Source: Clostridia bacterium
Lineage (GTDB): Bacteria > Bacillota > Clostridia > Oscillospirales > CAG-272
DNA length: 64,000 nucleotides
Direction of reading: 5' to 3'
Assembly (NCBI GenBank): GCA_017461385.1
Contig: JAFTXZ010000002.1
Coordinates: 38,221 to 102,220 of the forward strand
The translations under genes and the position numbers were made by a program. The notes under the pieces were generated by a model. That model made no database searches. It had not been told where the DNA came from and was given only the letters and a program-made list of their open reading frames with translations. Numbering within the stretch: position 1 is the stretch's first letter; each line of letters opens with the position of its first letter. Shown piece after piece: positions 4,711-56,105 of this stretch.

Positions 4711-6138
4711 TTAAGCCATCAAGCTATTGTATGACTCATAGGTGTAAAGACTGCCTTCCGTGGGCTTTGTCGGTTGTAGATAAGTAACCTTATCGTTGTC
4801 TATTACGTATCCACCGAGAGCAAGCTGTACGCCTCTGAGCTCATCAGATTCAAAGCCTGTTACTTTGATTGCAAAAATATCATAGTCATGCTTAGAAAAA
4901 TCTACGCTTGCAACCTTATTTGCAGATGTGCCGTCTGGATTTATGATTTCCTTATCAATCTTTTCCTCGCCAACTGTTTCCTGTGCGTTTTGCTTAGCTA
5001 CTGCAAATACACCATAGATTAGCTTTTCGCCTGTTGCTGTCTCGTAGTCAAGGATAGCGTCGTGGTCTACAAGGAAGCTAATAGAAACACCTCCGTCTGC
5101 GTATTCCTGCAGAGAGTAACCAAGGCACTTGAACAGAGGATTAAGGGTTACCTCCTCGTAGCATTCACAATTTACGCAACCGCTTCTCATATATCCGTTT
5201 TCTGTATAGCCATTTTCGTATTTTGCAATGGTTTGGTTATTGTGGGAGTCCTTTGCCTCTTGAAGAAGGGTCGAGCATCTTTGACATAGCAAGGCGGTTG
5301 TGCAGTCACCGTCGTCATCGCCTGCGTGACTACCCTCATAGTATGCATCACAATGGTTTACGTATGTAATATTGCTTGGCTGATAGGTCCAAGTAGCGTG
5401 GTCGCTTGCAGTACCTGTAAATTGAACGGTATGAGATGACCAGTTGGATACCTCATAGGTGGTTACGGATTTCGGAACTACAAGTGTAAGATTCAAGCTA
5501 ACGAAGGCATTAGCTTGAATTGTTTTAAGATTTTCAGGCAATTTGATATAGGTAAGCTTTCGACAGTTATAAAAGCCAGTTGCGTAAAGCGTTTCAATTT
5601 TTGAACCTGCCTCGAAATCAATTCCTACCAGGTTACCACAGTTATAAAACAAGCTTTGGTAAGAATTTCCACTTGGTTTGATGAGTCCTAAAACACTTGC
5701 CGGAATATACAAGTAACAAATCGGTGAGCCTTGAAATACAAAATCGAAATATTCAGGTCCATTGCCGTCTTTGTGAGTAAGTCCCTCAAGATTGGTAGCG
5801 ATAATGTTACCAAATTGGTTTGGACCTGCCATTAATCCTGGGTAGGAGTAGCAAATTCTGTAACTGTCGTTTACGTATGCTGCATCCTTTGTTTTAACAC
5901 TTACTATGTAGTAGGTTGTGCTTCCGTCAACGTACTCAAAATAGGTGCCCTCACTTGGCTTTTCGGTTACACGATACCAGGTGAGTGCCTCACCCTCGCC
6001 GTCTGTGGTGGGCAATACAATTGAATTGCCGCCTGCGTCATTGATTTTAATATCTACGTCCTTGGCAGATACAACGACGGTCAACATCATAACGCAAAGA
6101 ACCGACATTAAAAGAATGAAAAATAATTTTCTTTTCAT
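4711..6138 (-). CDS. Secreted BspA-type LRR protein with Cys/His cluster and conserved C-terminal domain
   Basis: Start reassigned to MKRKLFF (RBS GAGG); signal peptide; LRR_5-like repeat FYNCRKLTYIKLPENLKTIQANAF; C-terminus paralogous to 9448-12330. Confidence 0.8.
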   Translation of the reverse strand: MKRKLFFILLMSVLCVMMLTVVVSAKDVDIKINDAGGNSIVLPTTDGEGEALTWYRVTEKPSEGTYFEYVDGSTTYYIVSVKTKDAAYVNDSYRICYSYPGLMAGPNQFGNIIATNLEGLTHKDGNGPEYFDFVFQGSPICYLYIPASVLGLIKPSGNSYQSLFYNCGNLVGIDFEAGSKIETLYATGFYNCRKLTYIKLPENLKTIQANAFVSLNLTLVVPKSVTTYEVSNWSSHTVQFTGTASDHATWTYQPSNITYVNHCDAYYEGSHAGDDDGDCTTALLCQRCSTLLQEAKDSHNNQTIAKYENGYTENGYMRSGCVNCECYEEVTLNPLFKCLGYSLQEYADGGVSISFLVDHDAILDYETATGEKLIYGVFAVAKQNAQETVGEEKIDKEIINPDGTSANKVASVDFSKHDYDIFAIKVTGFESDELRGVQLALGGYVIDNDKVTYLQPTKPTEGSLYTYESYNSLMA

Positions 6139-6215
6139 TGTAAATTCCTCTCTTGTGAAAAATTTGTTGAATTGTTTTCTATGATATGCTAAAATGATAC
6201 TAAGGTGGTGATAAT

Positions 6216-7031
6216 ATGAGCTTAATGTCAAGGCTTGAGGAAAAGAATAAAAGAGTCCATTACATAAGCTACGACAGTAGCTTGCCTATTTGTGTTATGG
6301 AAATTGGTTGGGAAATTACTAAGCCTAACCATACCTGGACACCCAACGGACGGCCAAGGTATCTTATTCATATGATTAAAAGGGGTAAAATAACCGTAAC
6401 CCGTGCAAATGGTGAAATTACGCACCTTAGCAAGGGGGATTCCTTTATAAACGCACCCGATGAAGCAAGCACAATGAGGTCGGACTCAGAGGAGGGCTGT
6501 GAATACTATTGGCTTGGCTTTAACGGTAGCCATGCTAAGCCATTTTTGGAAAAAACCACTAAAAGCTTATATCCCAAATATAAGGAAAGCGGTATAGTGA
6601 CTGTTAGTGAGCTTCTTGAAAGCGCAGTTGTCGACCCAATCGGCACCCTTTGTGCTCTTTTTAAGGTTTTTAACGCAATTAAGGACGAATCTCCCTCGGA
6701 GGAAAACGACTTCGTCAATAAGGCGATTTTATACATTGAAAGCAACTATCACAAGAGCTTCAACGTAGAAAAATATGCAAAAAGCATAGGCGTTTCCCGC
6801 TCCTACTTCACTACGTCGTTTACTGAAAAAACGGGTATGTCTCCCTATAGCTTCCTTATCAACGAGCGAATTGAAAATGCGAAAAAGTATCTTTCAAAAA
6901 GCGACCTTACAATTACACAAATTGCAACGAAGGTGGGCTTTAGCTCAATTGATAGATTCAGTAGTGTTTTTAAGGAAAAAACAGGTATGTCTCCTAAAAA
7001 ATATAGAATCTCCATTAAAATTTTACCATAA
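6216..7031 (+). CDS. AraC-family transcriptional regulator (possibly controls melA)
   Basis: N-terminal cupin-like domain (EYYWLGFNG) and double HTH SDLTITQIATKVGFSSIDRFSSVFKEKTGMSPKKYR. Confidence 0.92.
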   Translation: MSLMSRLEEKNKRVHYISYDSSLPICVMEIGWEITKPNHTWTPNGRPRYLIHMIKRGKITVTRANGEITHLSKGDSFINAPDEASTMRSDSEEGCEYYWLGFNGSHAKPFLEKTTKSLYPKYKESGIVTVSELLESAVVDPIGTLCALFKVFNAIKDESPSEENDFVNKAILYIESNYHKSFNVEKYAKSIGVSRSYFTTSFTEKTGMSPYSFLINERIENAKKYLSKSDLTITQIATKVGFSSIDRFSSVFKEKTGMSPKKYRISIKILP

Positions 7032-9447: not shown

Positions 9448-12330
9448 ATGAGAAAGAAAGTTTTACTTTTTGTGGCACTTCTTTCATTACTTGCTTGCAT
9501 TTTCGCAATGGGCATTAGTGCAGCAGACTTTGAAAGTAACTACACAACCGAGGTAACAACATTCTATGATGCTGACGGTGTTACAGAGTTGTTGCCTACG
9601 TGGGCAAACGTAACTGACAAGGAAGCAACCGCAGTAATTAAAAAGGCTGATGGTAATGCAGTACGTATTCCTGCCTACTATGTTGTTAAGACAAATGGCG
9701 CAAGCTTTAACAAGGAAGGTACAAATCTAGACTTTTCATGGATTACTGAAAAGCTTGGCGAGGAAATTACAGTAGCAAATCTAGTTGCACTTGATGTACC
9801 AAATGACTTTACAAGCTTTAGTGGTGGAATTTCAACCACATACTTCCCAGCACTTGAGGAGCTTGTAATTCCTACAAGCGTAACATCCTTGGGACAAAGC
9901 ATGTTTAGAAACAACACTGTTATTAGGAAGGTATTCGTAAGGCAAGTTGTTGATGCTGATGGCAACGTACAGGGAGTTACTAGGCTACCTGGCTGGTTTG
10001 CTGATATAACCAATGGGTCTACCTCACATCTTGAATCCTTTGACTTTGAGCTTGATTATGTAACATCCATAGGAGATAGAGCGTTCGATAATTCTGCAAT
10101 TAAATCGTTTACAGTTAAAGCTCCTATGACAAGCTTGGGCAATACTGCATTCAATGGCTGTAAGTATCTTGAAACTGTTAGTATTAATAATACAGCAGAT
10201 GTTATAGGTCCTGTCAGCACACTATTCCAAGGTTGCATTAACATAAAAAGTATAAATTTGAATGGCATTTCCATAGGAGGTTACTTTTTACAAAATGCAA
10301 ACGCATTAACAGAGGGTGGATTGACTCTTATTGCAACAAACGTGGCATCAATTTCAGCCGAGGCGTTTAAGAAGGCTGTAAATCTTTCAAACGTTGATAT
10401 TTCTGGTCCAATCACTTCGATTGGTAATAGCATATTCTTGGAATGTAAAAATCTTACCAATGTAAGAATATATAATGAGCTTGAAACTCCTGCCACAGGT
10501 GGAAATAGCTTATGTGACAATCTTGCTACTGACAAGTTAACCTCAGTGGTGCTTCATGGTATTTCTATTGGAAACTATGCGTTCCGTAACCTTGGTCAAA
10601 ACACAAGCTTAACAAGCGAGTGTACAGTTGTTGCTACAAACATTGGATCAATAGGAACAGAAGCATTCAAAAATGCAGATATAATAGTAAGCATATACGT
10701 TGAGGGTCCATTTACCTCAGTTAATAGTGGTCATGTTTTCCGTGACAATGGTAAGCTTAAGGAGCTTACAATTATAAACACTGGTGACACTCTAGTAACA
10801 ATGGGCAATGGTGAAGTAAACCCTGAGCTTACTGATTTAACAATTAAGGGTAAATTTACCCTAGGTACCATGGAAAATTCAGGTAACCCATTGTTTCAAC
10901 AGAACTCAAAGCTAAAGAACGTATATCTTGGAACGGGTGTTCAGTCCATCGGTCAAAAAGCGTTCTATAAGTGCTACGCACTTGAAAAGGTGCATCTTGC
11001 AGATACAATTACCCAAATTGGCGACAGAGCCTTTGATTTTGAATCTGCTAACGTACAGACAAGTGAGACCTTTACCTTCGTTGACGAAAACGGCAATATG
11101 GATAATACCTTGCCAACCTCGCTTACATATATCGGTGGTCACTTCCTAAAGAGAATTAAAATTGCAAATACTGAGTTAATTTTCCCAGAGTCCTTTACAA
11201 ATCATGATTCTGACCAAGACTATGATTTTGAAGACACAATCTTACCAGCAAACTTTAGACTAATTTACCTTGGTAAAATGACAGCGATAGACCTACGTAT
11301 GCTACAAAATAGTAACGTAACTGTTTATTTAACCAAGAATAGTGCAAGTGAGCTTACAAATCCAATTGTTTATGCTTACATTGACGGCACAACCATTTCA
11401 GATAATGGTGGTGTATATTTTGGCACAAACACCAATGGAACATTGACACTTACACTGAACGACTACGTTAAAAACGGATTAAATCCTTCAGAATATATTA
11501 AGTACTACTTCTGTGGTAGCGATGAGGTTGTTTTCCTAACAAGAAGAAATATACCTAAGGGCGAGGGCACAAGCGCTTCATGGGATAACTTCGTTACAAC
11601 CCCTGTAACCTACGCACAGCTAACTGCTGCAGGCGTTACAATTGACAAGCACCCAATTTTAAGTGCGCCAGCCTTCTCACCAGCAACCTGCACAGAGGAT
11701 GGTGGAATCAAGACCTACTGCTTAGGCTGTGGACAAATTGCAAGCATTGAAAAGACAGAGGATGCACTTGGTCATAACTTTGACTATATCAATAGTGCTG
11801 AGGCAAAGCTTATAGCGATTGCTTACGCAAGCTATGATAAGATGGGTACAAAGACAGTATCCTGTGGTAACTGTGGCGAGCATGAGGAATTTGATGCAGC
11901 TGCTCTCTTTGTAAATCAAGGCTTCTCACAGACCGAGTACGAGGCTGGAAGCATTTTGATTAGCTTTGTAATAAATCACAAAGCACTTGATGAGTACAAG
12001 CAAATAACAGATAATGAGTTAACCTATGGTATCTTTGCAATAGCACAACAAAATGCACAAGATGAAAATAGTGTTGATAAGGAAATTGTAAATGCAGACG
12101 GCACAACTATAAAGGGTGTTGCAAGTGTTGATTTCTCAAAGCATGATTACGATATTTTCGCAATCAGAATTACAGGCTTTGAAACAGACGGACAAAAGGA
12201 CGTACAGCTAGCCCTTGGTGCTTACGTAATTGAAAACGGCAAGGTTTCCTACCTACAGGAAGGAAAGCCTGCAGATGGTCAGCTTTATACCTACGTTTCA
12301 TTCAATAGCCTAGCAAGCTACTTTGCTTAA
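9448..12330 (+). CDS. Large secreted BspA-type LRR surface protein
   Basis: Signal peptide MRKKVLLFVALLSLLACIFAMGISA; many LRR_5 repeats (SIGQKAFYKCYALEKVHL); ATCTEDG...CxxC motif; shared C-terminal domain. Confidence 0.88.
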   Translation: MRKKVLLFVALLSLLACIFAMGISAADFESNYTTEVTTFYDADGVTELLPTWANVTDKEATAVIKKADGNAVRIPAYYVVKTNGASFNKEGTNLDFSWITEKLGEEITVANLVALDVPNDFTSFSGGISTTYFPALEELVIPTSVTSLGQSMFRNNTVIRKVFVRQVVDADGNVQGVTRLPGWFADITNGSTSHLESFDFELDYVTSIGDRAFDNSAIKSFTVKAPMTSLGNTAFNGCKYLETVSINNTADVIGPVSTLFQGCINIKSINLNGISIGGYFLQNANALTEGGLTLIATNVASISAEAFKKAVNLSNVDISGPITSIGNSIFLECKNLTNVRIYNELETPATGGNSLCDNLATDKLTSVVLHGISIGNYAFRNLGQNTSLTSECTVVATNIGSIGTEAFKNADIIVSIYVEGPFTSVNSGHVFRDNGKLKELTIINTGDTLVTMGNGEVNPELTDLTIKGKFTLGTMENSGNPLFQQNSKLKNVYLGTGVQSIGQKAFYKCYALEKVHLADTITQIGDRAFDFESANVQTSETFTFVDENGNMDNTLPTSLTYIGGHFLKRIKIANTELIFPESFTNHDSDQDYDFEDTILPANFRLIYLGKMTAIDLRMLQNSNVTVYLTKNSASELTNPIVYAYIDGTTISDNGGVYFGTNTNGTLTLTLNDYVKNGLNPSEYIKYYFCGSDEVVFLTRRNIPKGEGTSASWDNFVTTPVTYAQLTAAGVTIDKHPILSAPAFSPATCTEDGGIKTYCLGCGQIASIEKTEDALGHNFDYINSAEAKLIAIAYASYDKMGTKTVSCGNCGEHEEFDAAALFVNQGFSQTEYEAGSILISFVINHKALDEYKQITDNELTYGIFAIAQQNAQDENSVDKEIVNADGTTIKGVASVDFSKHDYDIFAIRITGFETDGQKDVQLALGAYVIENGKVSYLQEGKPADGQLYTYVSFNSLASYFA

Positions 12331-13526: not shown

Positions 13527-15011
13527 ATGAAAATTAGAACAGATTTTGTAACCAATTCAAGCAGTAGCTCATTTGTAGCAGTAATTGCCACAAAGAAAAA
13601 TGGAGAGGTAGTAAGGGGCACACTGGATTGTGGAACCGATTACTACGAAATTCCATTGATTGAGGGAAGCCTTGATGAAAATATGGACTTGTTTAAGGAC
13701 GCAATTCAAGGCTCAAGAGACGCCTTTGATTTTTGCGATAAGCTATATAGTGAGCTTTTGAATATTTACCACACTGCCCACGATAATCTGTATCCCATTC
13801 GTGAAATGGAAACGTTTGAGGAGCTTGAAGCAATTCAGATAAAGGGAGAGCAAAGCGGCTCAAGCTACGGGCATTTTGATTACACCTACAATTTCAGCAC
13901 TCAAGAGGTTAGTGGAAATATGGACTACAAGGGTGGCTATGAGGAGCCGGATGGACGTGGCTTTATAGAAAAGCGCTGTAATTATAAGGGCGAGCTTGAC
14001 CGAGAGGGCACCTTTGAAATTGTTGACGGTATTTTGAAAAAATATAACGGACATGAATCTGATATAATCGTGCCGGAGGGAGTAGTGGGCATAGGCGTGT
14101 GTGCCTTTTCCCTAAACAGTGAAATAGAAAACGTATATCTGCCTGACACAGTAAAGTATATTGACGCACTAGGCTTTTTCCATTGCTCAAGGCTAAAAAG
14201 AATAAATCTGCCAAACGGACTTGAAAGACTGGGAAAAAGCGCCTTTGCTGGTTGCTCAAGCATCAAGAAGCTGGAGCTACCAGATAGCCTGTTTGAGCTG
14301 GATATAGAATGCTTTAAGGAAATGAAAAGCCTAAAGGAAATCGAAATTCCAAGTGGCGTTACAGAAATTCCATTTGAAGCCTTTGGAAGCTGTGAAAAGC
14401 TTGAAAGAATTTTATTGCCAACGGGCATTGAGAAAATTGACGAGTATGCATTTGGCTGGTGTTATGGCTTAAAGGAAATACGCTTCCCAGAGGGCTTGAG
14501 GGAGCTAAACATTAAGGCTATGTGTTGCTGTGACAATATAGAAAGAGTATATTTACCAAGCACGGTAGATGACGCCTGCGCAAGCGCCTTTAACGACCTA
14601 AAGCATCTAGAGGCTATTTTTGTAGATGAAAATAACAAGCATTACAAATCAATAGATGGAGTTTTATATACAAAGGATCTAAAAAGACTTATTAAATATC
14701 CAAGAGCAAAAAAGGAAGCTGAGTATATAATCCCAACTGGGGTTAAGTATATTTCAGAATATGCCTTTATGGAAGCAAAGGAACTTGAAACGCTTTCCTT
14801 GCCACAGGGGCTTGAAAGAATCGGCATTGATGCGTTTTCCTGCTGTAAGGGTATTGACAGAATAGAGCTTCCAAACAGTATAAAAAGCGTTAGCCATGGT
14901 GCCTTTGAGGGCTGTAATAGCCTTGATGAAATCGTAATCCCCAAGGATTTTCAGCTTGATGAGGAAAGCTACGACTACTGGCGCGAGGATATGAAAATTA
15001 CTAAAAGGTAA
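13527..15011 (+). CDS. MKIRTDFVTNSSSSSF-domain protein fused to BspA-type LRRs (no signal peptide)
   Basis: N-terminal motif shared with 8877; about ten LRR_5 repeats and a YKSIDGVLYTKDLKRLIKYP insert; starts 12 nt after the radical SAM stop. Confidence 0.88.
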   Translation: MKIRTDFVTNSSSSSFVAVIATKKNGEVVRGTLDCGTDYYEIPLIEGSLDENMDLFKDAIQGSRDAFDFCDKLYSELLNIYHTAHDNLYPIREMETFEELEAIQIKGEQSGSSYGHFDYTYNFSTQEVSGNMDYKGGYEEPDGRGFIEKRCNYKGELDREGTFEIVDGILKKYNGHESDIIVPEGVVGIGVCAFSLNSEIENVYLPDTVKYIDALGFFHCSRLKRINLPNGLERLGKSAFAGCSSIKKLELPDSLFELDIECFKEMKSLKEIEIPSGVTEIPFEAFGSCEKLERILLPTGIEKIDEYAFGWCYGLKEIRFPEGLRELNIKAMCCCDNIERVYLPSTVDDACASAFNDLKHLEAIFVDENNKHYKSIDGVLYTKDLKRLIKYPRAKKEAEYIIPTGVKYISEYAFMEAKELETLSLPQGLERIGIDAFSCCKGIDRIELPNSIKSVSHGAFEGCNSLDEIVIPKDFQLDEESYDYWREDMKITKR

Positions 15012-16479: not shown

Positions 16480-17472
16480 ATGGATAGATTATTGACAGGA
16501 CTTCAGCCCAGTGGTAGCTTGACTATTGGAAACTACAGTGGAGGAATCAGACAGGTAATTGATTACCAAAAAACCTACGAAACCTTCCTTTTCGTTCCAG
16601 ATATGCACGCAACAACGGTGCCACAGGACCCAGAGGCTTTACACAAAAACATAAAAAATGCAGTTGGACTTTACATTGCCTGTGGAGTAGATGTAAATCT
16701 AGATAATATGCATTTATATATTCAATCAGAAAACCTATATCACGCAAACCTTTCATGGATTTTGGAGTGTATGACTCCCTTTGGTGAGCTTACAAGAATG
16801 CACCAATTCAAGGAAAAGTCAAAGAATAAAGAGGGCTTTAGCAGTGGCTTGGTAACTTACCCTGTTTTGATGGCGTCTGACATTTTGCTTTACGATGCAA
16901 AATACGTGCCAACAGGCATTGACCAAAAGCAACACGTTGAGCTTGCAAGAAACCTTGCAGAGCGCTTTAACGAAAGGTATAAGGGAGATTTCTTCCAAAT
17001 ACCAGAGCCTGTAATTCCTAAAATTGGAGCGAAAATCCGTGACTTAAAGGATCCTTCCAAGAAAATGAGCAAATCTGCTGAGAATACAAAGGGTACAATT
17101 TTCCTACTGGATTGCGAAAAGGATATTCGCAAAAAGATTATGGGAGCTACAACCGATAGCGACGGCATAATCAAGTTCGATGAGGAAAACAAGCCAGGAC
17201 TTTCTAATCTGCTTACAATTTATTCCGTATTTAGTGGAATGAGTGTTGAGGAGATTGTTGAAAAATTCCAAGGTGGTGGCTACGGCGACCTTAAGAAGGC
17301 TCTTGCAGACCTACTCTGCGAAAAAATTGCAGTTATTCAAGATAACTACCAAAAAATTATGGCAAGTGGCGTAATTGACGACGCCCTTGACAGAGGTAGA
17401 GAATATACAAACGCAATTGCCAAGGAAAAGTACGAGTTAATTCGTAAAACCGTAGGCTACGGCAGAATATAA
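16480..17472 (+). CDS. trpS: Tryptophan--tRNA ligase
   Basis: TGLQPSGSLTIGNY (TIGN), YPVLMASDILLY, GIDQKQHVEL, KMSKS. Confidence 0.97.
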   Translation: MDRLLTGLQPSGSLTIGNYSGGIRQVIDYQKTYETFLFVPDMHATTVPQDPEALHKNIKNAVGLYIACGVDVNLDNMHLYIQSENLYHANLSWILECMTPFGELTRMHQFKEKSKNKEGFSSGLVTYPVLMASDILLYDAKYVPTGIDQKQHVELARNLAERFNERYKGDFFQIPEPVIPKIGAKIRDLKDPSKKMSKSAENTKGTIFLLDCEKDIRKKIMGATTDSDGIIKFDEENKPGLSNLLTIYSVFSGMSVEEIVEKFQGGGYGDLKKALADLLCEKIAVIQDNYQKIMASGVIDDALDRGREYTNAIAKEKYELIRKTVGYGRI

Positions 17473-17483
17473 CGGAAGAATAA

Positions 17484-17520
17484 AAGGTGGTGCAGATTAG
17501 GTTGCACCACCTTGTTTTTT
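17484..17520. terminator. Terminator between trpS and the convergent RSH-like gene
   Basis: AAGGTGGTGCA...TGCACCACCTT stem with flanking A/T tracts. Confidence 0.75.
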
Positions 17521-19003
17521 ATGATTTAGGCTTGTAAATTCCAGAGAATATATCAATATTGTATTTTTCGCTTGCTTTTTTGAAGAATTCATAGAGGCGA
17601 GCTCTTGCAATCTTGCTTTCAAGAATTGTAAACCAATTAAGACGTGCACTGTAGCCACCGTCATATCTTTGAATAACAACCTTGTCGTTGCTTTGTAGCT
17701 TATAGTCAGGCTCCACGTAGTTGTCATTTACAATTGCACCCTGATAGCTTGCACCGATTTCTGTGTTCAAGATAAAGGCAAGATCCAAAACAGTAATTCC
17801 CTTGTCAAGCTCAAGCACGTGTCCGTCCTTAGTGAAGATTTGAATTTTAGAATCGGCTGAGTAGCTACGGGTTGAAAGACTAGAGGATTCTGCTAGGAAA
17901 CTATGGAAATCACGCCTGATAATCATTAGCTTGATAACGTTATGATGCATATCCTCAAGCTTTATGCTTGCAGTGTCATTATCAATAAGCTTGTCGTCAA
18001 ATACGTCGATGATCAAATCGTGAAGCAGGGGCTTAATTAGCTTGAAAACCTGACTTATAAGCGGTTCCTCGTCGTTTACCTCATTTAGCTTGATATAAAG
18101 AGTAGTGTATGGCTTGTATCCTACGAAGGAAAACAGGTCGTCTCTTGTTTGAAGCGCATAGGGGTTTAGATTCTTAATCGCCCTTGAAATCTTTCTTGGC
18201 GTAGGCGTAATAGTGCCCTTGCCAAGACCTGATACAAGACATGCATCTCCACAAGCGTTTTTGATAGCAACTTGAGTTTTGTTCAGCTTCTCGATTGAGT
18301 TTTGTACAAATTTTGAAAGCAGAACCTGTATGTTCTCGTGAATTTTAGGATTCTTTATATAGAAGCATCCATCTGCCAAAAGCTCGGCAATTTGAAAGCA
18401 ACCAAGCTTCTTAGCAAGGGGAATAAGTATTCTTTGAGTGTGGTTTATGTACCTTGCAAGCTCCTCGCTTGTCTTACCCTTGGTGGAGTAAAGATTGTCA
18501 AGCCTGTCGGCAAATTTAATATAAAGTGAGGCGCAATCCTTGCCCTCTGCGTTGGAAATGCGTTTGTCGTATTCCTCTTGAAGCTTATCCCACTCGTCCC
18601 TTGTTGCAGGGGTGGTGGACGAAAGCCTGGTAATGGCTCTTACGTGCTCGGCAACCTCACTGCCAAAATCAGCAGCCATAAGCTCAAAGGTGTAGCCTGT
18701 GTTGTTTTCAACCGTGTCGTGAAGAAGGCTTGCCACAAGAATAGGCGTGGTTGTAAAGCCGTCCTGATACATACGCTTGAAAACAGCCAAGGGGTGATAG
18801 AGGAAAAGCTGACCAGATGGCGAGCGTAAATCCTTGTGCCAATATTTGGCAACCTGCCAAGCAAGAGCTAGCGTGCTGGTATCAACCGAGGTAGAATCTC
18901 CCTTTTCCTGATCTCTTTTTATTTGAGAAATTACACCGTTAAAGCCCTCGTCAATTGCTCTTAATTGCTCGTTAGTTTTATCTGGTAATATGTATTCAAT
19001 CAT
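17519..19003 (-). CDS. Divergent RelA/SpoT-like protein (HD domain, degenerate synthetase, TGS; no ZFD/ACT)
   Basis: SGQLFLYHPLAV, LLHDTVEN, IKFADRLDNL; TGS IFTKDGHVLELDKGITVLDLAFILNTEIG; start ATG 19003 with AGGAG RBS. Confidence 0.85.
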   Translation of the reverse strand: MIEYILPDKTNEQLRAIDEGFNGVISQIKRDQEKGDSTSVDTSTLALAWQVAKYWHKDLRSPSGQLFLYHPLAVFKRMYQDGFTTTPILVASLLHDTVENNTGYTFELMAADFGSEVAEHVRAITRLSSTTPATRDEWDKLQEEYDKRISNAEGKDCASLYIKFADRLDNLYSTKGKTSEELARYINHTQRILIPLAKKLGCFQIAELLADGCFYIKNPKIHENIQVLLSKFVQNSIEKLNKTQVAIKNACGDACLVSGLGKGTITPTPRKISRAIKNLNPYALQTRDDLFSFVGYKPYTTLYIKLNEVNDEEPLISQVFKLIKPLLHDLIIDVFDDKLIDNDTASIKLEDMHHNVIKLMIIRRDFHSFLAESSSLSTRSYSADSKIQIFTKDGHVLELDKGITVLDLAFILNTEIGASYQGAIVNDNYVEPDYKLQSNDKVVIQRYDGGYSARLNWFTILESKIARARLYEFFKKASEKYNIDIFSGIYKPKS

Positions 19004-19047
19004 CTGTAATCTCCTGTAAAAGTATAACAAGATTACTTGTCATTTGA

Positions 19048-20124
19048 TTAATCGTTTTTCTTGAATAGAGAATAAAACTCCTGATCTCTTTCACCAATTA
19101 ATGAAAGGATTTGCATGGAGCTTGTGCTCATTGCACCCTTTATTGTTCTGTGTGCAGTATTTCGCAAAAGGTCGATTTTATCATCTCTTGTGTAGTTTGG
19201 ACTATCTAATAGATCGCTTGCTCTCTGGGCAATTGCATCTGAGGCTAGATCTGCTGATTCAATTCTTGCAGGGTTAGAGAGAAGGTTGATAACTCGTCTT
19301 GGCTCTAGCTCCTCAAACGGTGTACTTCTTGAAAGTAAAAGCAATTGTGAGCAGGGCGTTTTGCCATAGCCTCGGGAAATTGATGAGCAAATTGAGCCAC
19401 CGCCAATATATGAGCGAGCTCCACTATTGTCAGGATTAATTCCCATAATAAGCACCTTGTCAATGATTGAGAGGGCGTCCTCCACCGATTTATTATAATC
19501 CTTAGGTGCGAAGTAGCCGGTCAAATCAATTGAGTAGAACTTTTCCTTTTGAATTAGTGAGAATTCGCCCTCGTAATATCTCTCAAGAGAGGTAAATATT
19601 CTTTTAACCTCTGAATATTTTCCGTTCTCAAAGGCGTCGGTTGCACGGGCATAAATTGCCTCCTCAACCTCTTGTCTTAATGAAAAACAAGCGTAGCATC
19701 TGTAAGGACCGCGAGGGTTATTGTTAATGCTTTCGTTAATAATGGCAAGTGCGCCGAAGGAAATATTGGGGTCGTCCTTAAATCTGGTTACACTTGTTTT
19801 ATTGGTTGATAGATAATAAAGATGATAAACTCCGAAAAACTTCTTGTATTCCTGTGGCAGGTAGCTGTCTGTTGATTGCACCTTGTTAGGATTGAAGGAT
19901 GTAGAGCATAGCTCGTCAAGAGAAACGTTAAAGCGTTCCTTAATTATATTAAGGTCGGCAATTGAAAACATACTGTTGTGGCATACGTTTAAGTAATTGC
20001 TGATTGTGGATTTTGCAGTGATTCCCAAAACGCTTGCAAGGTCTGCTTGTCTTAGTCCCTTTACGTCTAGAAGCTGCTGCACGTTAGTTTTAATTATTGT
20101 GTTGATATCTCTTTCGTTTGTCAT
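19048..20124 (-). CDS. XRE/Cro-type HTH protein with large uncharacterised C-terminal domain
   Basis: KGLRQADLASVLGITAKSTISNYL...FNVSLDELC; start ATG 20124 with AAGGAG RBS. Confidence 0.8.
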   Translation of the reverse strand: MTNERDINTIIKTNVQQLLDVKGLRQADLASVLGITAKSTISNYLNVCHNSMFSIADLNIIKERFNVSLDELCSTSFNPNKVQSTDSYLPQEYKKFFGVYHLYYLSTNKTSVTRFKDDPNISFGALAIINESINNNPRGPYRCYACFSLRQEVEEAIYARATDAFENGKYSEVKRIFTSLERYYEGEFSLIQKEKFYSIDLTGYFAPKDYNKSVEDALSIIDKVLIMGINPDNSGARSYIGGGSICSSISRGYGKTPCSQLLLLSRSTPFEELEPRRVINLLSNPARIESADLASDAIAQRASDLLDSPNYTRDDKIDLLRNTAHRTIKGAMSTSSMQILSLIGERDQEFYSLFKKND

Positions 20125-20202
20125 TAGTATTCTCCTTTTTGGCATTGGAGGGGTAAAAAACACAACGGTTTCAAAGGTCCCTTCATATCGCCCATCATAA
20201 GT

Positions 20203-20232
20203 ATTTTAACATAAGGGCACTTGGAGTGTCAA
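20203..20232 (-). promoter_or_regulatory. Promoter for the HTH-RSH operon
   Basis: Minus strand TTGACA-18 bp-TAAAAT with TG extension. Confidence 0.55.
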
Positions 20233-20416
20233 CTAAATATGTACTAAAGAAAAGAAAAATTTGAAAAAGTATTCCAAAAAACATAAAAATAATCGAAATA
20301 GCTACTGAATTTTTGAAAAATAACTTAAAAATCCATATAAATTTTGCAATTTTGAACCAAAAATAATATGATTACAAAAAATTGAACTATAAATACGAAA
20401 AATACAAAAATGCCTA

Positions 20417-20445
20417 TTGACAGATAACGGGCGTTATGGTAGTAT
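20417..20445 (+). promoter_or_regulatory. Rightward promoter with palindrome in spacer
   Basis: TTGACA-17 bp-TAGTAT; spacer holds ATAACG-GG-CGTTAT (20424-20437). Confidence 0.55.
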
Positions 20446-20738
20446 ATTCCTCACCCGAAATAGCTGAAAAATGAGTAAGCCTATCCACTAAAGGGAGGAA
20501 TGAACTGCTACTAAAACAAGACGGAGATTTTCCCTTGGCAAAAATTGTTGTTTTTTGAAGTATTGTTCAAAAAATACGAACAAAAATATCAAGAAACTTT
20601 TTTGAAAGTCCATCGTTTTTAGTAAAAAATGGCAGATACTATAGTTGTCAGGGAAGATGCACAAGCATCTAACCGCGAATGCTTTATCTGTTAAAGGCAG
20701 ATTTGAATATAAGATTTTATGAAAGAGAGGAAAATAGA

Positions 20739-21473
20739 ATGGAAAACATCACACGTGAAAATCTATACAGAAGCTTCTTCGATGCTACAATCGGTCGTTT
20801 CTATTCTGAGGAGCAATCACTCAAGCTTTTAAGACTGTTTGCTCTTGAGGCAGGAATCGTAGAGGGTAGTGAGGAATACAACTCAATCGTTAATACAATT
20901 AAGGCAATCAACAAGGCAAATATCAGAAATTTCATCGAGTGTAATAACTTTGGCTTGCTTTGTGAGTTTGCATCACCATTCAGCGATGCTCGTTTGGCAG
21001 CTAGCGCTCTTTCAAAGTGCTATAGAGAAAGAAGAGATAGAGGTCAAGATGCTTATTCAAGCCCGGTTGAATGGCGTATAAACGTTTACAAGAACGCAAC
21101 GTCAAGACAAAATAAGCTTGAAATCGCCTACATAGAATATACTAACGGTCAGTTAGATAAGGCGCTTGAGGGCTTAAAGGGGCTTGCAAGCTCGGGTGAT
21201 ATTGAGGCGCTTAGCCACCTTGCAATAATCTGCTACGATGAGGGCAGATATGAGGATGCTTATTTGTATCTTTCACAGCTCAATAAGGTATTCGTTGAGG
21301 AGCTTTATTTAACAGAGGGCTGCGAATGGTCAAAGGGCTTAAGAAGCTACGTGTCCCTTTTGGTTTCTGAGGAGGCAGCTGAAAGACTTGATGAGCAGGT
21401 AAGAAATGAAAAGCCCTTCCTAACAAGACGTGGCTCAAACGGTATGAGCGTAGGAGGCTTTGTAAGAGGCTAA
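20739..21473 (+). CDS. Hypothetical helical protein with TPR/Sel1-like repeats
   Basis: EIAYIEYTNGQLDKALEGL and EALSHLAIICYDEGRYEDAYLYL; start ATG 20739 with GAGG RBS. Confidence 0.7.
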   Translation: MENITRENLYRSFFDATIGRFYSEEQSLKLLRLFALEAGIVEGSEEYNSIVNTIKAINKANIRNFIECNNFGLLCEFASPFSDARLAASALSKCYRERRDRGQDAYSSPVEWRINVYKNATSRQNKLEIAYIEYTNGQLDKALEGLKGLASSGDIEALSHLAIICYDEGRYEDAYLYLSQLNKVFVEELYLTEGCEWSKGLRSYVSLLVSEEAAERLDEQVRNEKPFLTRRGSNGMSVGGFVRG

Positions 21474-21520
21474 GGTCCGAGCTTGGGCTCGGACACACGC
21501 CCGAATTTTAGGAGGAAAAA

Positions 21521-23218
21521 ATGAATTTTACATCTTCAATAAATGATACATTAAGAGCCGAAAACCATCAATATTATGAGGACTCCAAGTGCATTGAATG
21601 CGCGCCGGGGCTCGACGTTAAAAACGGTAGATGGGTAAAGGTTGACGAAATTAAGGAGCTTGAGGAGCTAATGTGGCCTGTTTACTTTGATAAGGAGCAG
21701 GACAGAGCCCTTATGCTGCCAATGTCCCACTGTATGCTGACAGGTAGTACGGGTACAGGTAAATCCGAGGTAATTGTAAAGAATATTTTATCCCTTCTTT
21801 CTAATTACAAGGATGAAAAGAAGCCATCTTTTATGGTTACTGACCTTAAGGGTGATATCTCTGAACAGCTTGGCGAGAAGCTAATGGAAAGAGGCTATAA
21901 CGTATCGGTTTTAGATATGCGTAATTCCTTTGGCTCTGCAAGATATAATTTCCTTACTCAAATTTATGATGACTATCAGGAGGCAATGAGAATAAAGAAG
22001 GATTTGGCAAGCAACCAAATTACCTCTATATTTGACGGAGTTAAGTATGATTCTATAAAGGTTGCCCGTTCAAAGGCTACAATCAAATATCTAACACTCT
22101 TAGAGGGCGTTGAAAGAAGCGTGAATGAGCTTGCTATTATAATGGTTCCATGCGATGACCCTAAGAATAAATCCTGGGCAGACGGCGCAAGAACTATGTG
22201 TGAGGCGATTATGAGAACTATGCTTCGTGACTCTGAGGATCCAAGACTTGGAATGACAAGAGAAAAGTTCACAGTTGCTAACGTTGCAAGAATATCCTTC
22301 TCCACAGACGAAACCTGCTCAAAGATAATCTCTTGGCTGGAAAGGGCAGATGATATTCTCTGTGTAAGAAGTGCTCTTTCTGGTAACTATCGTCTATCTG
22401 CAAGAACAACAAGAGATGGCTACATAAGCACGCTTAATACACAGCTTGCACATTATGCAGCTGTATCAATAGCAGCTCTTACAGAAACTGCCGATGATAT
22501 TGATCTGAGAAAAATTGCAGAAAGTGATAAGCCTTATGCAATCTTCATAATCACTGACGACAGACAGGTTACTACAAATAACATCTGTATGATGTTTATG
22601 AACAACCTAATAAACGAGTTAACAAAGGCTGCAGACTCAAGAACTGAGCACTGCCTACCAAGAGATTTTATAATCCTGGCAGACGAGTTTGCGAATATGC
22701 CAGCGCTACCAAACATTTCTAACAAAATTACAACCCTTCGTTCGAGAAAAATCTGGATGATGATGGCAATTCAGTCTAATCAACAGCTGGATATGGTTTA
22801 TGGCACTAACCAAATGGAGATTTTAAGGGATAACTGCGACCTTCAAATATTTATAGGCTGTAACAATGACAAGACCAAGGAGGAGTTTGCACACTCTATG
22901 GGTCAGACCATAGGCTCTATAACCTCGTTTGCAATCTCTAATGACGGCTCAATCTCTGCTCAAAAGCAATCCAACAACGTTCCGGTTGTAAGAAGAAGCG
23001 ACCTTGACGCACTAGAGCTTGGCGAGTTTTATATTCGCTCAAGAAAGAGCCAGAATATGAGAAGTAGGATGACTCCTTACTTTATGCAAAGAGATAAGAA
23101 CGAAAAGCTTGCTCCAATAACAATAGTTCGTGAGTTTGATCCGAATGCAAATCGATATGATATTGCAGCTGTCCTAAAAACCTTAAGAGCTAAGCTTAAG
23201 GAATGGTACGATGATTAA
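21521..23218 (+). CDS. VirD4/TraG-like coupling-protein ATPase lacking transmembrane anchor
   Basis: Walker A TGSTGTGKS, VTDLKGDI, RYNFL, Walker B ILADEFANM, TLRSRKIWMMMAIQSNQQLDMVYG, NCD; no hydrophobic N-terminal helix. Confidence 0.85.
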   Translation: MNFTSSINDTLRAENHQYYEDSKCIECAPGLDVKNGRWVKVDEIKELEELMWPVYFDKEQDRALMLPMSHCMLTGSTGTGKSEVIVKNILSLLSNYKDEKKPSFMVTDLKGDISEQLGEKLMERGYNVSVLDMRNSFGSARYNFLTQIYDDYQEAMRIKKDLASNQITSIFDGVKYDSIKVARSKATIKYLTLLEGVERSVNELAIIMVPCDDPKNKSWADGARTMCEAIMRTMLRDSEDPRLGMTREKFTVANVARISFSTDETCSKIISWLERADDILCVRSALSGNYRLSARTTRDGYISTLNTQLAHYAAVSIAALTETADDIDLRKIAESDKPYAIFIITDDRQVTTNNICMMFMNNLINELTKAADSRTEHCLPRDFIILADEFANMPALPNISNKITTLRSRKIWMMMAIQSNQQLDMVYGTNQMEILRDNCDLQIFIGCNNDKTKEEFAHSMGQTIGSITSFAISNDGSISAQKQSNNVPVVRRSDLDALELGEFYIRSRKSQNMRSRMTPYFMQRDKNEKLAPITIVREFDPNANRYDIAAVLKTLRAKLKEWYDD

Positions 23219-23245
23219 GGCTAAGCAAATCTGATTTCCGTAAGG

Positions 23246-23284
23246 ATAGAGGCTACACGTATCGCGTGTAGCCTCTATATTTTT
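23246..23284 (+). terminator. Intrinsic terminator ending the TPR-VirD4 operon
   Basis: ATAGAGGCTACACG-TATCG-CGTGTAGCCTCTAT then T-rich. Confidence 0.75.
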
Positions 23285-23404
23285 CAAAGCTATTGAAAAA
23301 ATGACTCCCTTGTGCTATACTTGTAATATGGCAAATAAAAATTGCGATTTTTAATTAAAATTCCAAAAATTGCCACAGGAGTGTCTAAAAAGCAAGGAGA
23401 AAAT

Positions 23405-24184
23405 ATGGATAATAACGAAAAAAATCAAGCTTCTGAAAACATGCAGGAGCCTAATGAATCTAATATTGCAAGGCGAGAAAGACTTCTTGGCACTGATATG
23501 ACTGATAAAATCCACGATGATAAGGCTGAAATTACAAAGGGAAACTTTTTTGCAAACGTTTGGTACAGGTTTAAGTGGGCGATAATTGTTGTTGCTCTTT
23601 TTCTTGTTGTGATGATATATGGACTTGTTCATAGTGCACTACAAAAAACCTATGACCTGGATCTTTCGTATTTCGGACCGGTCTATGTGAAGTCCTCATT
23701 ACATGACGATATCCAAAAAATGCTTTCGGACCTAGCACAGGATTATAACGGAGACGGGGAAAAGAAAATCAATTTTACCTTTACCACCTATCAGGGGGAG
23801 GAAGGAATTGAGAATATTCCTGAAAATCAAGAGTTTTACAACGCAATCTTGACCGCCAATGCAAATACTGAGGCGCTTAAGGGCATGAATAGTCAGATAA
23901 ACTCTGGACACATTTCCTTTTACATTATGGATAAGGATATTTATGAAATGTATAAGGGGCACTTCATTACCGTTGAGGAAATTCTAGGCTATAAGCTTGA
24001 TAGCAGTAAGCTTTACGATTCTCGTGCAGTTTTGCTGGAGGAAACAATGCTTGATGATAGATACCCAACCCTTGCACCAATTTGCAAGGATTCGGTAATT
24101 TGTGTACAAAAAATATACACCACAAGTGAGGAAAAGCTGGAAAGCGCAAAGGCGCTTTTTAAGGCAATAGTTGAATTAGAATAA
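23405..24184 (+). CDS. Hypothetical single-pass membrane protein
   Basis: Start ATG 23405 (AGGAG RBS); NVWYRFKWAIIVVALFLVVMIYGL TM; DYNGDGE motif; promoter TTGAAA(23293)-17 bp-TATACT. Confidence 0.75.
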   Translation: MDNNEKNQASENMQEPNESNIARRERLLGTDMTDKIHDDKAEITKGNFFANVWYRFKWAIIVVALFLVVMIYGLVHSALQKTYDLDLSYFGPVYVKSSLHDDIQKMLSDLAQDYNGDGEKKINFTFTTYQGEEGIENIPENQEFYNAILTANANTEALKGMNSQINSGHISFYIMDKDIYEMYKGHFITVEEILGYKLDSSKLYDSRAVLLEETMLDDRYPTLAPICKDSVICVQKIYTTSEEKLESAKALFKAIVELE

Positions 24185-26418: not shown

Positions 26419-27177
26419 TTATTTTCTTTCCCAGTAAGCACAGCCGTCGTCAAAGTCCATTTTTGAAAGCATTTCTGCATTCTTTTCAGGATCTGAAAGG
26501 TCAAGCGTGTAGTCAGTATCATTATAAACACAATGCCAAGTCCAGCCCTCTGGATTTTCAAATGTAACTCGCTTCAAGCCGTAACAGCTTCTGAAGGCAA
26601 GTGAGCCTATGCGCTCAACTCCCTTAGGAATAGTAATGTCAACAAGCTCGTAGCAATGCTCAAATGCGTCCTCCTCGATTTCAACTGTCTTTGTGGAAAC
26701 AGGGAAGACCTTTAGGGCTTCACACCCACTAAAGATACCCTCTGAAATTGAGTCGGTTGGATTGATTGTCTCAAGGGCTTTGCATTCGTAAAAGGCATAG
26801 GGTCCTATATAGCAATCAGGCACGTGTGCAAAGGCAAGAGATGAGCAACCGGAAAATGCGCCTCTGCCAATAAAAGACACGTGGCAGGGAATATCTATCG
26901 ACTTAAGCGAGGTGCAATAATTAAATGCGTAGTCGCCTATTTCAAACATTGAGGTGAAGTCCTTGTGAGCGTAGTAGTCCTTTTCACAGGGAAAGGTAAC
27001 GGCTTCAAGCTGTGAACAGTCCTTGAACGCCTGCTCCTCAATTCCAACGACTAAAAGACCATTAACCTCAAGAGGAATTTCAACACTCTGTGCGTCCTTT
27101 TCACAATCTATAATGACACAGGTGCTTTCAAAGCTATCTGGCCTTAGGGTTAGCTTTTCGTATTTGATATCTTCCAT
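26419..27177 (-). CDS. Cytoplasmic BspA-type LRR protein
   Basis: IGDYAFNYCTSLKSIDIP and IGSLAFRSCYGLKRVTF repeats; start ATG 27177 with AGGAG RBS. Confidence 0.85.
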   Translation of the reverse strand: MEDIKYEKLTLRPDSFESTCVIIDCEKDAQSVEIPLEVNGLLVVGIEEQAFKDCSQLEAVTFPCEKDYYAHKDFTSMFEIGDYAFNYCTSLKSIDIPCHVSFIGRGAFSGCSSLAFAHVPDCYIGPYAFYECKALETINPTDSISEGIFSGCEALKVFPVSTKTVEIEEDAFEHCYELVDITIPKGVERIGSLAFRSCYGLKRVTFENPEGWTWHCVYNDTDYTLDLSDPEKNAEMLSKMDFDDGCAYWERK

Positions 27178-27279
27178 AATAAAGCTCCTTATTTGGTATA
27201 TAAACATTGTATCACGGTTAGTAGAATTTGTAAAGTAAATTCCAAAAAATATTAAAAATCATACACTCCAAGGGACTTT

Positions 27280-55092: not shown

Positions 55093-56103
55093 ATGGAAAA
55101 TATAGAATTGAATGAAATTGAAGCAGGCATCGTTCAAAGCGTTGCACAATTTAGCAAGAGTGTTGCTCAAATCAAGACAGAGCTTGCAAGGGACGTTGTA
55201 GGACAAGAGGAAATAGTTGACAATGTAGTAATCGCGATTATCGCAGGTGGTAACGTATTGCTCGAGGGAGTACCAGGTGTAGGTAAAACCCGTCTTGTTC
55301 GTTCACTTAGCAGAGTATTGAAGCTCCCATTCTCACGTATTCAGTTTACACCTGACCTTATGCCATCAGACGTAACAGGTGCAAATGTAGTCGAAAAGGA
55401 TGCAGAGGGAAGGCTTTCAACCATTTTCCGTGAGGGACCAATTTTTGCAAACCTAGTGCTGGCAGACGAAATCAACCGTGCTACTCCAAAGACTCAATCA
55501 GCTATGCTTGAGGTAATGCAGGAGCATAAGGTAACAGTAGGTAAAAGCACGTACCCAATTAACGAGCCATTTTTCGTTCTCGCAACTGAAAACCCAATTG
55601 AGCAGGATGGTACATACCCCCTACCAGAGGCGCAGATGGACCGCTTTATGTTCAAGCTAATAATGGAGTACCCATCAGATGCTGAGCTTAGAAACATCGT
55701 TAAGATGACACAAAAGACAATGGCAGAAACTGCCGAGGGCGTTGTTGACGGAGCAAAAATTCTTGAAATGAGAGCTCTTGCTTCTCAGGTTCCTGTAATA
55801 GATGAGGTTATCGATTATGCAGTAAGCCTTGTTTCAGGCACACACCCAGAGCTTGAGCAAGCATCAAGCACAGCCAAGAAGTACATAAAGTACGGTGCAT
55901 CACCACGTGCCGCACAGGCTCTTATTACTGCTGCTAAGGTAAGAGCGCTAATCAACGGCAACCTAAATGTGGCTTATGAGGATATTGCAGCTCTTGCAAA
56001 GCCAGTACTTCGCCACAGAATAAAGGTAAATTATACAGCTATCAACGAGCATCTTGATACAGATGCAGTAATTGAACTACTACTAAAGGAAATCAAAAAA
56101 TAA
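55093..56103 (+). CDS. moxR: MoxR-family AAA+ ATPase
   Basis: LEGVPGVGKT, RIQFTPDLMPSDVTG, LADEINRATPKTQSAMLE, ATENPIEQDGTYPLPEAQMDRF, GASPRA. Confidence 0.95.
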   Translation: MENIELNEIEAGIVQSVAQFSKSVAQIKTELARDVVGQEEIVDNVVIAIIAGGNVLLEGVPGVGKTRLVRSLSRVLKLPFSRIQFTPDLMPSDVTGANVVEKDAEGRLSTIFREGPIFANLVLADEINRATPKTQSAMLEVMQEHKVTVGKSTYPINEPFFVLATENPIEQDGTYPLPEAQMDRFMFKLIMEYPSDAELRNIVKMTQKTMAETAEGVVDGAKILEMRALASQVPVIDEVIDYAVSLVSGTHPELEQASSTAKKYIKYGASPRAAQALITAAKVRALINGNLNVAYEDIAALAKPVLRHRIKVNYTAINEHLDTDAVIELLLKEIKK

Positions 56104-56105
56104 TA

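Follow-up and report, generated by a model that had tools for sequence, protein, structure and literature searches.

What is a VirD4-like ATPase doing next to a Rel-like protein in a chromosomal block that holds no recognisable conjugation genes? This question is raised by a 64,000-nucleotide stretch of DNA from an uncultured gut Clostridia bacterium (assembly GCA_017461385.1, contig 3, positions 38221-102220), which was analysed at its full length and is called the window below. The assembly (G000) comprises 1.54 Mb in 30 contigs and is 75% complete. Between trpS (tRNA-synt_1b, 6e-66) and orf280, a core gene of unassigned function that occurs in 48 of 50 genomes of the genus, lie four intact open reading frames (ORFs) arranged as two divergent pairs. 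One pair encodes a Rel-like protein with HD and TGS domains (HD-TGS) and an XRE-type regulator, the other a TPR-like protein and the VirD4-like ATPase (Table 1). The TPR/VirD4-like pair is the evolutionary unit, and XRE with HD-TGS is one of several alternative companions. The block looks like an undescribed accessory system rather than the leftover of a conjugative element.

A sequence-only reading of this DNA had described a self-contained block after trpS, bounded by terminators and made of two divergent two-gene units around an AT-rich region of about 600 bp, with no relaxase, VirB4 or integrase gene in the window. This outline holds. The central region is 614 bp long, its GC content falling to 0.288, and terminator-like hairpins stand at both ends of the block. 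The number of terminator-like sites in the scanned region is not above chance (7, against 6.0 expected from shuffled sequence); the edge hairpins have the longest stems of that scan (12 and 15 pairs) and are placed exactly at the block ends. A family-profile scan of 41 window proteins, which leaves aside one ORF of 90 aa or more running off the window end (63479-64003), gave no match to relaxase, VirB4-type or integrase families. Across the whole assembly PF12846 gave one match below its cut-off and PF03432 none, a result that carries little weight alone at 75% completeness.

The TPR/VirD4-like core and its companions

The ATPase is a P-loop NTPase with an all-alpha insertion, and its profile matches TrwB (1e9r) and Cag5 (8dol). 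Its Walker A (G75..G78.G80 K81) and Walker B (D388 E389) residues are invariant in 19 diverse sequences, down to 33% identity. In a simple hydropathy scan its peak 19-residue Kyte-Doolittle mean was 1.06, compared with 2.2-2.65 in seven anchored relatives, and on this sequence evidence the protein is soluble and without an N-terminal membrane anchor, as had been proposed. Against the NCBIfam model NF045973 (VirD4-like, CD1115 family) it scored 199.5 bits, under the curated cut-off of 250. A search of 5.8 billion proteins returned 89 clusters at 34% identity or more, after which identity fell to 22%. No match above 30% identity was found among 72,556 plasmids and 50,697 phage records; the best plasmid matches, at 24% identity, were CD1115-family conjugal proteins of conjugative Enterococcus plasmids.

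A quick maximum-likelihood tree of 30 rows (a more careful tree search did not finish) divided the relatives into three groups. It leaves out G294/L059 and G144/L061, where the ORF filter did not recover the gene, as well as a fragment (G447/L052), a gene cut by the contig start (G463/L083) and a broken copy (G897/L151). The first group holds the seven rows with an N-terminal hydrophobic anchor; in the two whose neighbours were scanned, the gene adjoins a MobL relaxase (L056) or a 1220-aa TraG-P-loop/VirB4-like protein (L060). The second comprises 10 soluble rows preceded by a partner gene without a name, which measures about 550 aa in the seven loci sized. The third is the window clade, 13 soluble, TPR-linked rows on one starred branch with a long stem. 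The anchor is absent from all 13, and in 13 loci of the clade no relaxase, VirB4 or integrase was found among neighbouring ORFs of at least 110 aa. The VirD4-like gene of this clade is therefore not one that lies within integrative and conjugative elements (ICEs), a location that would have counted against the earlier reading, whereas the two anchored relatives scanned do adjoin conjugation genes.

The family-level relatives include a second anchor-less VirD4-like clade (L063, L066-L073), 25-28% identical, in which an unnamed gene of about 550 aa precedes the ATPase in seven of nine loci. Genes for a Metallophos protein and a 1168-aa double-AAA+/M41 protease are found in L063, and a Card1-like endonuclease gene in L068. 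This clade may be a sister non-conjugative system.

Linkage to the TPR gene is constant: in all 12 of the intact loci that include the region before VirD4-like, it is the gene immediately upstream, and the two ORFs overlap in L031, L149 and L150. The TPR protein itself gave Pfam TPR matches only below threshold, and its Protein Atlas leads were Sel1/TPR clusters with TM below 0.5. In total the core pair was found in 15 genomes. Five genomes carry all four genes with order and orientation unchanged, at three chromosomal places: at trpS in G000, G034 and G005; beside uxaC/altronate genes in G009, whose orf280 is on another contig; and in G856, a member of another genome group, at 51/32/36/32% identity (VirD4-like/TPR/XRE/HD-TGS) with a Metallophos gene next to them. 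The earlier reading would have failed if the two pairs never co-occurred elsewhere; they do co-occur. XRE and HD-TGS were present in five of the 201 genomes searched, always beside the core. Whole-genome searches detect HD-TGS in four of the 50 genus genomes and in one of the 151 relatives of G818 (a second genome, found via genome contigs), which are exactly the five module carriers, and all five copies adjoin XRE-TPR-VirD4-like. A profile search of all fetched ORFs likewise confined XRE and HD-TGS to module loci.

Elsewhere the core keeps other company. The window clade is present in nine of the 50 genus genomes, four with the short form accompanied by XRE and HD-TGS and five (G002, G007, G028, G463, G464) with a long form of about 755 aa. 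This seems to have an acidic linker and a helical C-terminal extension, with Imm53-like matches in some members (7e-8 at best), and lacks XRE and HD-TGS. The long-form locus is one and the same, with the same EEP-family gene flanking, in the three genomes whose far flank is readable (G002, G028, G464). Directly downstream of the core lie Cas12a-cas4-cas1-cas2 (G007), Cas12a (G028) or Cas9-cas1-cas2 (G002), and upstream a Pkinase-STAND-LRR gene and a protein of about 500 aa (G028, G007; split in G464). As an observation on these loci, the type V-A (Cas12a) locus of L028/G028 and L029/G007 gives way to a type II (Cas9) locus in L030/G002 at one chromosomal place; the shared locus was judged by the EEP gene in G028 and G002, and the G007 contig ends before that flank.

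Among the 151 relatives of G818, six carry the window clade. G818 and G867 have a kinase gene (Pkinase; G818), PP2C and transglutaminase-like genes and a 966-aa double-AAA+/M41 protease (PADLOC IetA-like, 1.9e-37), followed by proteins of 395-397 aa and 380 aa, TPR, VirD4-like and a 160-aa protein. In G872 and G857 a small XRE-HTH gene (HTH_3 1.9e-9) lies directly upstream of TPR/VirD4-like. The VirD4-like gene of G897 (L151:9059-10771) is split by one TAG into 428 and 129 aa with no TPR gene detected alongside, and is a decaying copy. Since XRE and HD-TGS are thus one of several companions, the block is modular. The earlier suggestion of a repurposed module outside conjugation agrees with the lack of conjugation genes; its fixed four-gene unit gives way to a TPR/VirD4-like core with swapped companions.

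Three further observations concern these neighbourhoods. A Metallophos gene follows VirD4-like in G856 (L150:7093-7872), G005 (L026:13177-13857) and G034 (L025:13387-14097), and the window copy has none at this place. On the minus strand of G867 (L149:3789-6839) a Metallophos gene, an AAA_33 kinase-like gene and a T4 Rnl1-type RNA ligase gene have an RNA healing-and-sealing make-up. In L152 a MoxR and VWA pair lies near the TPR/VirD4-like pair.

Outside these groups the clade was scarce. In the family sample none of 400 genomes reached a clade-level score (best 2.5e-111, against 1e-246 or better inside the clade), and 20 of the 400 had weaker relatives with E values of 1e-77 to 1e-111. None of the 400 genomes of the order sample had the VirD4-like clade at 1e-130. 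A genome-contig search with the VirD4-like alignment gave at least four loci, two of them useful. In metagenome contigs a single-protein scan found none and a degenerate-motif scan found 26 loci, among which only L108, a fragment, encodes a relative, so that the JGI metagenome collection adds no context.

The four-gene carriers fall in two subclades of the tree, G000/G034/G005/G009, and G856 with G818/G867. The XRE/HD-TGS addition was therefore either ancestral and then replaced, or moved between cores. Identities of the window proteins to those of G034/G005 were 84/82% for VirD4-like, 71/76% for XRE, 53/48% for TPR and 55/51% for HD-TGS, with 88/89% for the flanking trpS and 78/77% for the dGTPase-like gene. 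The fastest parts, TPR and HD-TGS, are those proposed below for recognition and sensing; the alternative is relaxed constraint. An empty-site look-up at trpS showed that orf280 adjoins the dGTPase-like gene only in the carriers G000, G034 and G005. The flanks of about 1.5 kb around the 30 loci examined contained no trpS match. The genus has diverged too far for presence or absence to be compared at this site.

The Rel-like protein, the XRE regulator and the control region

The HD-TGS protein has the domain order HD hydrolase, degenerate synthetase-fold domain, TGS and one long helix. It gave no RelA_SpoT (PF04607) Pfam match and scored 145.7 bits against TIGR00691, whose cut-off is 499.2; its family comprises 10 clusters found. 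An AlphaFold model built on a 15-row alignment (pLDDT 80.5) shows a helical HD domain, an alpha/beta domain, TGS and the long helix. In Foldseek this model matched full-length Rel of B. subtilis (6yxa, E 6e-18) and Rel HD+synthetase fragments (TMt 0.58-0.64 over about 350 columns), and the synthetase fold is therefore retained in the model. In an alignment with three canonical Rel proteins, the RxKxxxSxxxK and EIQIRT-type motifs, which from general knowledge of Rel enzymes we take to be those of the synthetase, are missing, and the domain falls short of the canonical length by about 45 residues. Nine of the 11 family members retain the hydrolase motifs. R..SG..HP, HD and K.ADR..N are present in the window copy, which has VENN in place of the VED of the others, so that the presumed hydrolase ED pair becomes EN; the G856 copy lacks the ED pair and most of motif III. 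The earlier name 'pseudo-RelA/SpoT' thus applies to the synthetase part, whose motifs are lost; those of the hydrolase part are mostly kept.

TGS is present, and the protein ends about 50 residues further on, without zinc-finger or ACT/RRM domains. Given that many family-invariant columns fall in the TGS domain and the helix after it, sequence conservation suggests binding, and not catalysis, as the conserved activity of this family. The PF04607 synthetase domain was found neither in the four genes nor in the whole assembly G000. A canonical Rel of about 745 aa was not found in G000, G005 and G009, three of the four module carriers of the genus (assemblies 74-76% complete). Rel is also absent from about half of the genus assemblies below 80% completeness (7 of 13), so its absence in carriers is not evidence of loss. 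An in-frame TAA in the HD-TGS matches of G034 and G856 was considered as a gene break and rejected, as it lies upstream of the true start. A distant second set of proteins of about 500 aa with HD_4 and TGS and no synthetase Pfam match was seen in metagenomes (P0116, P0120, P0132, P0137, P0138, P0140, P0144, P0145), 21-25% identical over nearly the full length.

The XRE protein scored 17.1 bits against HTH_3, under its cut-off of 23, and matched a PezA profile (5.6e-4) and, weakly, the PDC-M64 HTH. Its model is of middling confidence (pLDDT 64.7) and predicts an HTH N-terminal part, an eight-stranded beta-barrel in the middle and a helical C-terminus. Residues 18-89 of the model align with many XRE regulators (Z 7-9.8, root-mean-square deviation about 2), and this part is, as modelled, a lambda-repressor-like DNA-binding domain. 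Residues 103-281 form a predicted up-and-down beta-barrel resembling a designed barrel (Z 9.9), streptavidin-like folds and the Cap15 cyclic-nucleotide receptor (Z 8.1); we take the likeness of the modelled barrel to a nucleotide receptor as a lead only. Foldseek returned nothing at E<=0.001 for the whole model, and Protein Atlas gave no usable lead for the C-terminal part (best score 0.89, unnamed). A HMMER search of 1.84 billion representatives found 12 family proteins at E<=1e-30 and 99 at E<=1e-10, mostly full-length (350-400 aa), and none of the members looked up carries a name.

Promoter-like sites lie on both strands of the divergent region. Downstream of the plus-strand site runs a leader of about 290 nt; its final stretch of roughly 150 nt, with a hairpin in it, is conserved in G034 and G005. 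Upstream of TPR, positions 20560-20738 of this leader contain the hairpin GATGC-ACAA-GCATC and then a CTAAC/CTGACTACG-like stretch; at the same position G009 carries a hairpin that differs in sequence. Rfam assigned the spacer to no family at E<=0.1 and returned one chance-level small RNA row (E 0.49). One animal-gut metatranscriptome library contained eight listed contigs and a ninth not shown, 91-432 nt long and 95-99% alike, which overlap HD-TGS, XRE, the spacer and VirD4-like in part; none covers TPR. A second run, of unspecified kind, contains most of the module stretch.

Positions of the block and its parts are collected in Table 1, with the likely starts as shifted by homologue alignments. 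The XRE gene and the HD-TGS ORF are separated by 17 bp, TPR and VirD4-like by 47 bp.

Table 1. Features of the block and its borders, in window coordinates
Feature	Position	Strand	Remarks
trpS	16480-17472		upstream of the block
Terminator-like hairpin, trpS/HD-TGS gap	17484-17513	both	12 and 11 pairs, 6 G-C
HD-TGS ORF	17519-19030	-	503 aa; Pfam HD_4 1.9e-15, TGS 1.6e-12
Rel-like HD-TGS protein	17519-19003	-	494 aa from M10; ORF open to 19030
XRE ORF	19048-20163	-	371 aa; weak HTH_3
XRE-type HTH regulator	19048-20124	-	358 aa from M14; weak HTH_3 and predicted structure
AT-rich divergent control region	20125-20738	.	614 bp
Promoter-like site, XRE operon	20232->20203	-	11 of 12
Promoter-like site, TPR side	20417-20445	+	TTGACA-17-TAGTAT, extended TG; conserved in G034, G005
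TPR ORF	20679-21473	+	264 aa; TPR-like Pfam matches below threshold
TPR/Sel1-like helical-repeat partner	20739-21473	+	244 aa from M21; sub-threshold TPR matches
VirD4-like ORF (VirD4/TrwB-type P-loop ATPase, predicted soluble)	21521-23218	+	565 aa, membrane anchor absent; T4SS-DNA_transf 8e-28, TraG-D_C 5e-22, TrwB_AAD_bind 1.5e-18
Terminator-like hairpin ending the TPR/VirD4-like unit	23246-23278	+	15 pairs, 7 G-C, T-run
orf280	23342-24184		core gene

Function of the block and competing explanations

The analysis directly supports the linkage of the genes and their domain content, the missing anchor and conserved motifs of the ATPase, the degenerate synthetase and the lack of conjugation genes. 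From the neighbourhood and the patchy distribution we infer a defence role. Judged from sequence, we hold it an even prospect that the block is an accessory, horizontally shuffled conflict system, probably directed against phages or plasmids. The recurring linkage of the genes, the separate clade of the ATPase, its patchy spread, the Cas, STAND and AAA+ protease genes nearby, the uneven rates of the four proteins and the precedents in Menshen and MADS speak for this reading.

These data allow us to propose how such a system might work. The XRE repressor, with its ligand-binding-like barrel, would bind the divergent control region and set the expression of both operons. The Rel-like protein would sense translation or alarmone status via the TGS domain and the HD pocket; most orthologues may also hydrolyse a (p)ppGpp-like nucleotide, and the window copy probably only binds one. 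The TPR adaptor would recognise an invader-derived protein or nucleoprotein and load or activate the ATPase, and the cytoplasmic VirD4/TrwB-type ring would use ATP to translocate or strip that substrate. A bolder version is a long shot: soluble VirD4-like and TPR might act as a cytoplasmic decoy coupling protein that reads relaxase-DNA or protein-primed signals of invading DNA and captures or unloads the invaders. This would amount to immunity against conjugation and mobile genetic elements, switched by a Rel with a dead synthetase and a nucleotide-sensing XRE repressor and thereby tied to a stringent-response signal.

Several points weigh against a conflict system. No toxic effector (nuclease, TIR, SIR2 or pore former) is recognisable in the four genes, and PADLOC gave no system-level match for the four proteins. 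The core was seen in just the 15 genomes, several of them sharing one locus, so that the independent neighbourhoods number about six. Adjacency to Cas genes is confined to one locus in one lineage (G002, G007, G028) and may be coincidental, and the contexts of roughly 75 other VirD4-like protein clusters are unread. Evidence of expression is weak, as the metatranscriptome contigs give neither strand nor level and may reflect DNA carry-over. The XRE model is middling, and the Z values of its barrel lie within the range that the tool calls common.

The lack of an effector domain would fit a host stress-signalling or housekeeping module, in which XRE and the Rel-like protein couple nutrition to a cytoplasmic translocase or chaperone-like ATPase working on a cellular substrate. 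Rel-type HD and TGS domains are classic parts of the stringent response, the block sits among core genes (trpS and the dGTPase-like HD gene) with no mobility genes, and VirD4-like evolves at the pace of a core gene. Against a module of this kind stand the patchy spread (nine of the 50 genus genomes, none of the 400 from the order sample), the interchangeable companions, the Cas, STAND and AAA+ protease genes among the neighbours, the fast divergence of TPR and HD-TGS, and the broken copy in G897. We consider it unlikely.

Quite improbable, in our estimate, is a toxin-antitoxin or abortive pair in which the Rel-like protein is toxin or antitoxin, acting on alarmones or tRNA 3' ends under XRE as antitoxin or repressor, and TPR/VirD4-like is a separate entity. 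XRE and HD-TGS do lie close together and are always found together, and XRE has its weak PezA-type and PDC-M64 HTH matches. Alarmone hydrolases are reported to be antitoxins of toxSAS, and toxSAS to modify tRNA CCA ends (PMC7229694, 10.1101/2021.04.30.441581). No PF04607 synthetase gene was found in the module or in the 75% complete assembly, however, and XRE with HD-TGS was never seen without TPR/VirD4-like (five of five). Moreover, the G856 copy has lost hydrolase residues, the window copy has a change among them, and the two proteins each greatly exceed typical toxin-antitoxin parts in size.

Finally, that a coupling protein gene and some cargo survive from a decayed ICE is very improbable and already largely refuted: the ATPase does belong to the VirD4/TraG/TrwB superfamily, with the conjugal CD1115 type as its nearest named family and conjugative Enterococcus plasmids as its best plasmid matches, but its score stays below the CD1115 cut-off, the frames are intact, the Walker motifs are invariant, all 13 clade members lack the anchor and keep the TPR partner, relaxase, VirB4 and integrase were not found in the window or at the 13 loci, and neither PF12846 nor PF03432 exceeded its cut-off in the 75% complete assembly.

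Neighbouring genes and comparison with known systems

Beyond the block, the window contains other gene groups that we record as separate observations. Eleven large genes on the plus strand (30036-53174) look like a separate defence island. They encode a ResIII/SNF2 helicase (958 aa; PADLOC BrxH/DrmD-like, 1.8e-24), a 1554-aa MBG-domain protein, a 1537-aa DUF4011/AAA_11/AAA_12/MTES_1575 protein (PADLOC PDC-S37 1.2e-117, Hhe 2.3e-52), an AAA protein (IetA-like, 5e-27) and several proteins without a family. Further on, also on the plus strand (55093-63418), lies a MoxR (AAA_3)-DUF58-BatA/VWA-VWA operon of the Bat/aerotolerance type. Four BspA-type LRR_5 proteins are encoded within 27 kb (4711-6231, 9448-12330, 13527-15011, 26419-27207), and the LRR_5 repeat also forms the C-terminus of the kinase-STAND proteins beside the long-form VirD4-like genes.

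Should the core pair prove to serve in immunity or conflict, it would represent a second evolutionary exit of coupling proteins, in which the anchor was lost, a TPR adaptor gained and the protein became cytoplasmic. Gut Clostridia, for which few cultured models exist, would then gain an ATPase class new to their defence repertoire. The Rel-like protein is a natural long RelA/SpoT homologue (RSH) cut down to HD, pseudo-synthetase and TGS, its hydrolase site decaying in some lineages, and could reveal what the TGS and HD pockets sense once catalysis is not the point. The swapping of companions (XRE/Rel-like, helical C-terminal extension, PP2C/transglutaminase/AAA+ protease) offers a ready comparative design for experiments. 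Full-text literature searches, which did not extend to subscription journals and supplements, brought up neither a system of TPR and soluble VirD4 nor an HD-pseudo-synthetase-TGS protein in phage defence.

The closest parallels for the single proteins come from conjugation and the stringent response. With type IV coupling proteins (VirD4/TraG/TrwB, CD1115) the window ATPase shares the P-loop domain, the all-alpha insertion and the Pfam profiles. It differs from them in having no anchor, no relaxase or type IV secretion system genes nearby and a score below the CD1115 cut-off, and in forming a separate long-stemmed clade with an obligatory TPR partner. The Rel-like protein shares with long RSH enzymes (Rel, SpoT) the HD fold with its R..SG..HP, HD and K.ADR..N motifs, the synthetase fold and TGS, in Rel order, but lacks the synthetase motifs and the C-terminal zinc-finger and ACT/RRM domains, and the window copy has EN for ED. 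It is larger than any small alarmone hydrolase, and unlike in toxSAS modules the small alarmone synthetase toxin gene is absent from the module and from the 75% complete assembly.

As to its architecture, the block recalls the CapH/CapP type, two-gene cassettes of an HTH regulator and a partner that stand beside defence operons. Both place a divergent XRE-HTH gene, together with a single partner, beside a core operon that varies, and the N-terminal domain of CapH is among the structural matches of the window HTH part (Z 7.7). The partner here is Rel-like HD-TGS and not a peptidase, and the regulatory role of the window pair is only predicted.

For the core, MADS and Menshen offer the nearest comparison. 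MADS includes MAD7/MAD8, described as an ATPase-nuclease module (PMC13662399), and three NsnA variants of Menshen have an N-terminal T4SS-DNA_transf domain (PMC12065111). The PADLOC mad8 profile matches the window VirD4-like protein at 2.5e-11; no other mad profile matched any of the four window proteins, and no other MADS or Menshen genes were found. The methyltransferase, kinase and nuclease parts of the mad1-mad8 operon are not present in the window module, whose companions are instead TPR, XRE and Rel-like proteins with no nuclease partner. What the window ATPase has in common with MAD7/MAD8 and NsnA is that in each case a P-loop ATPase of the VirD4/HerA-FtsK type has been recruited outside conjugation.

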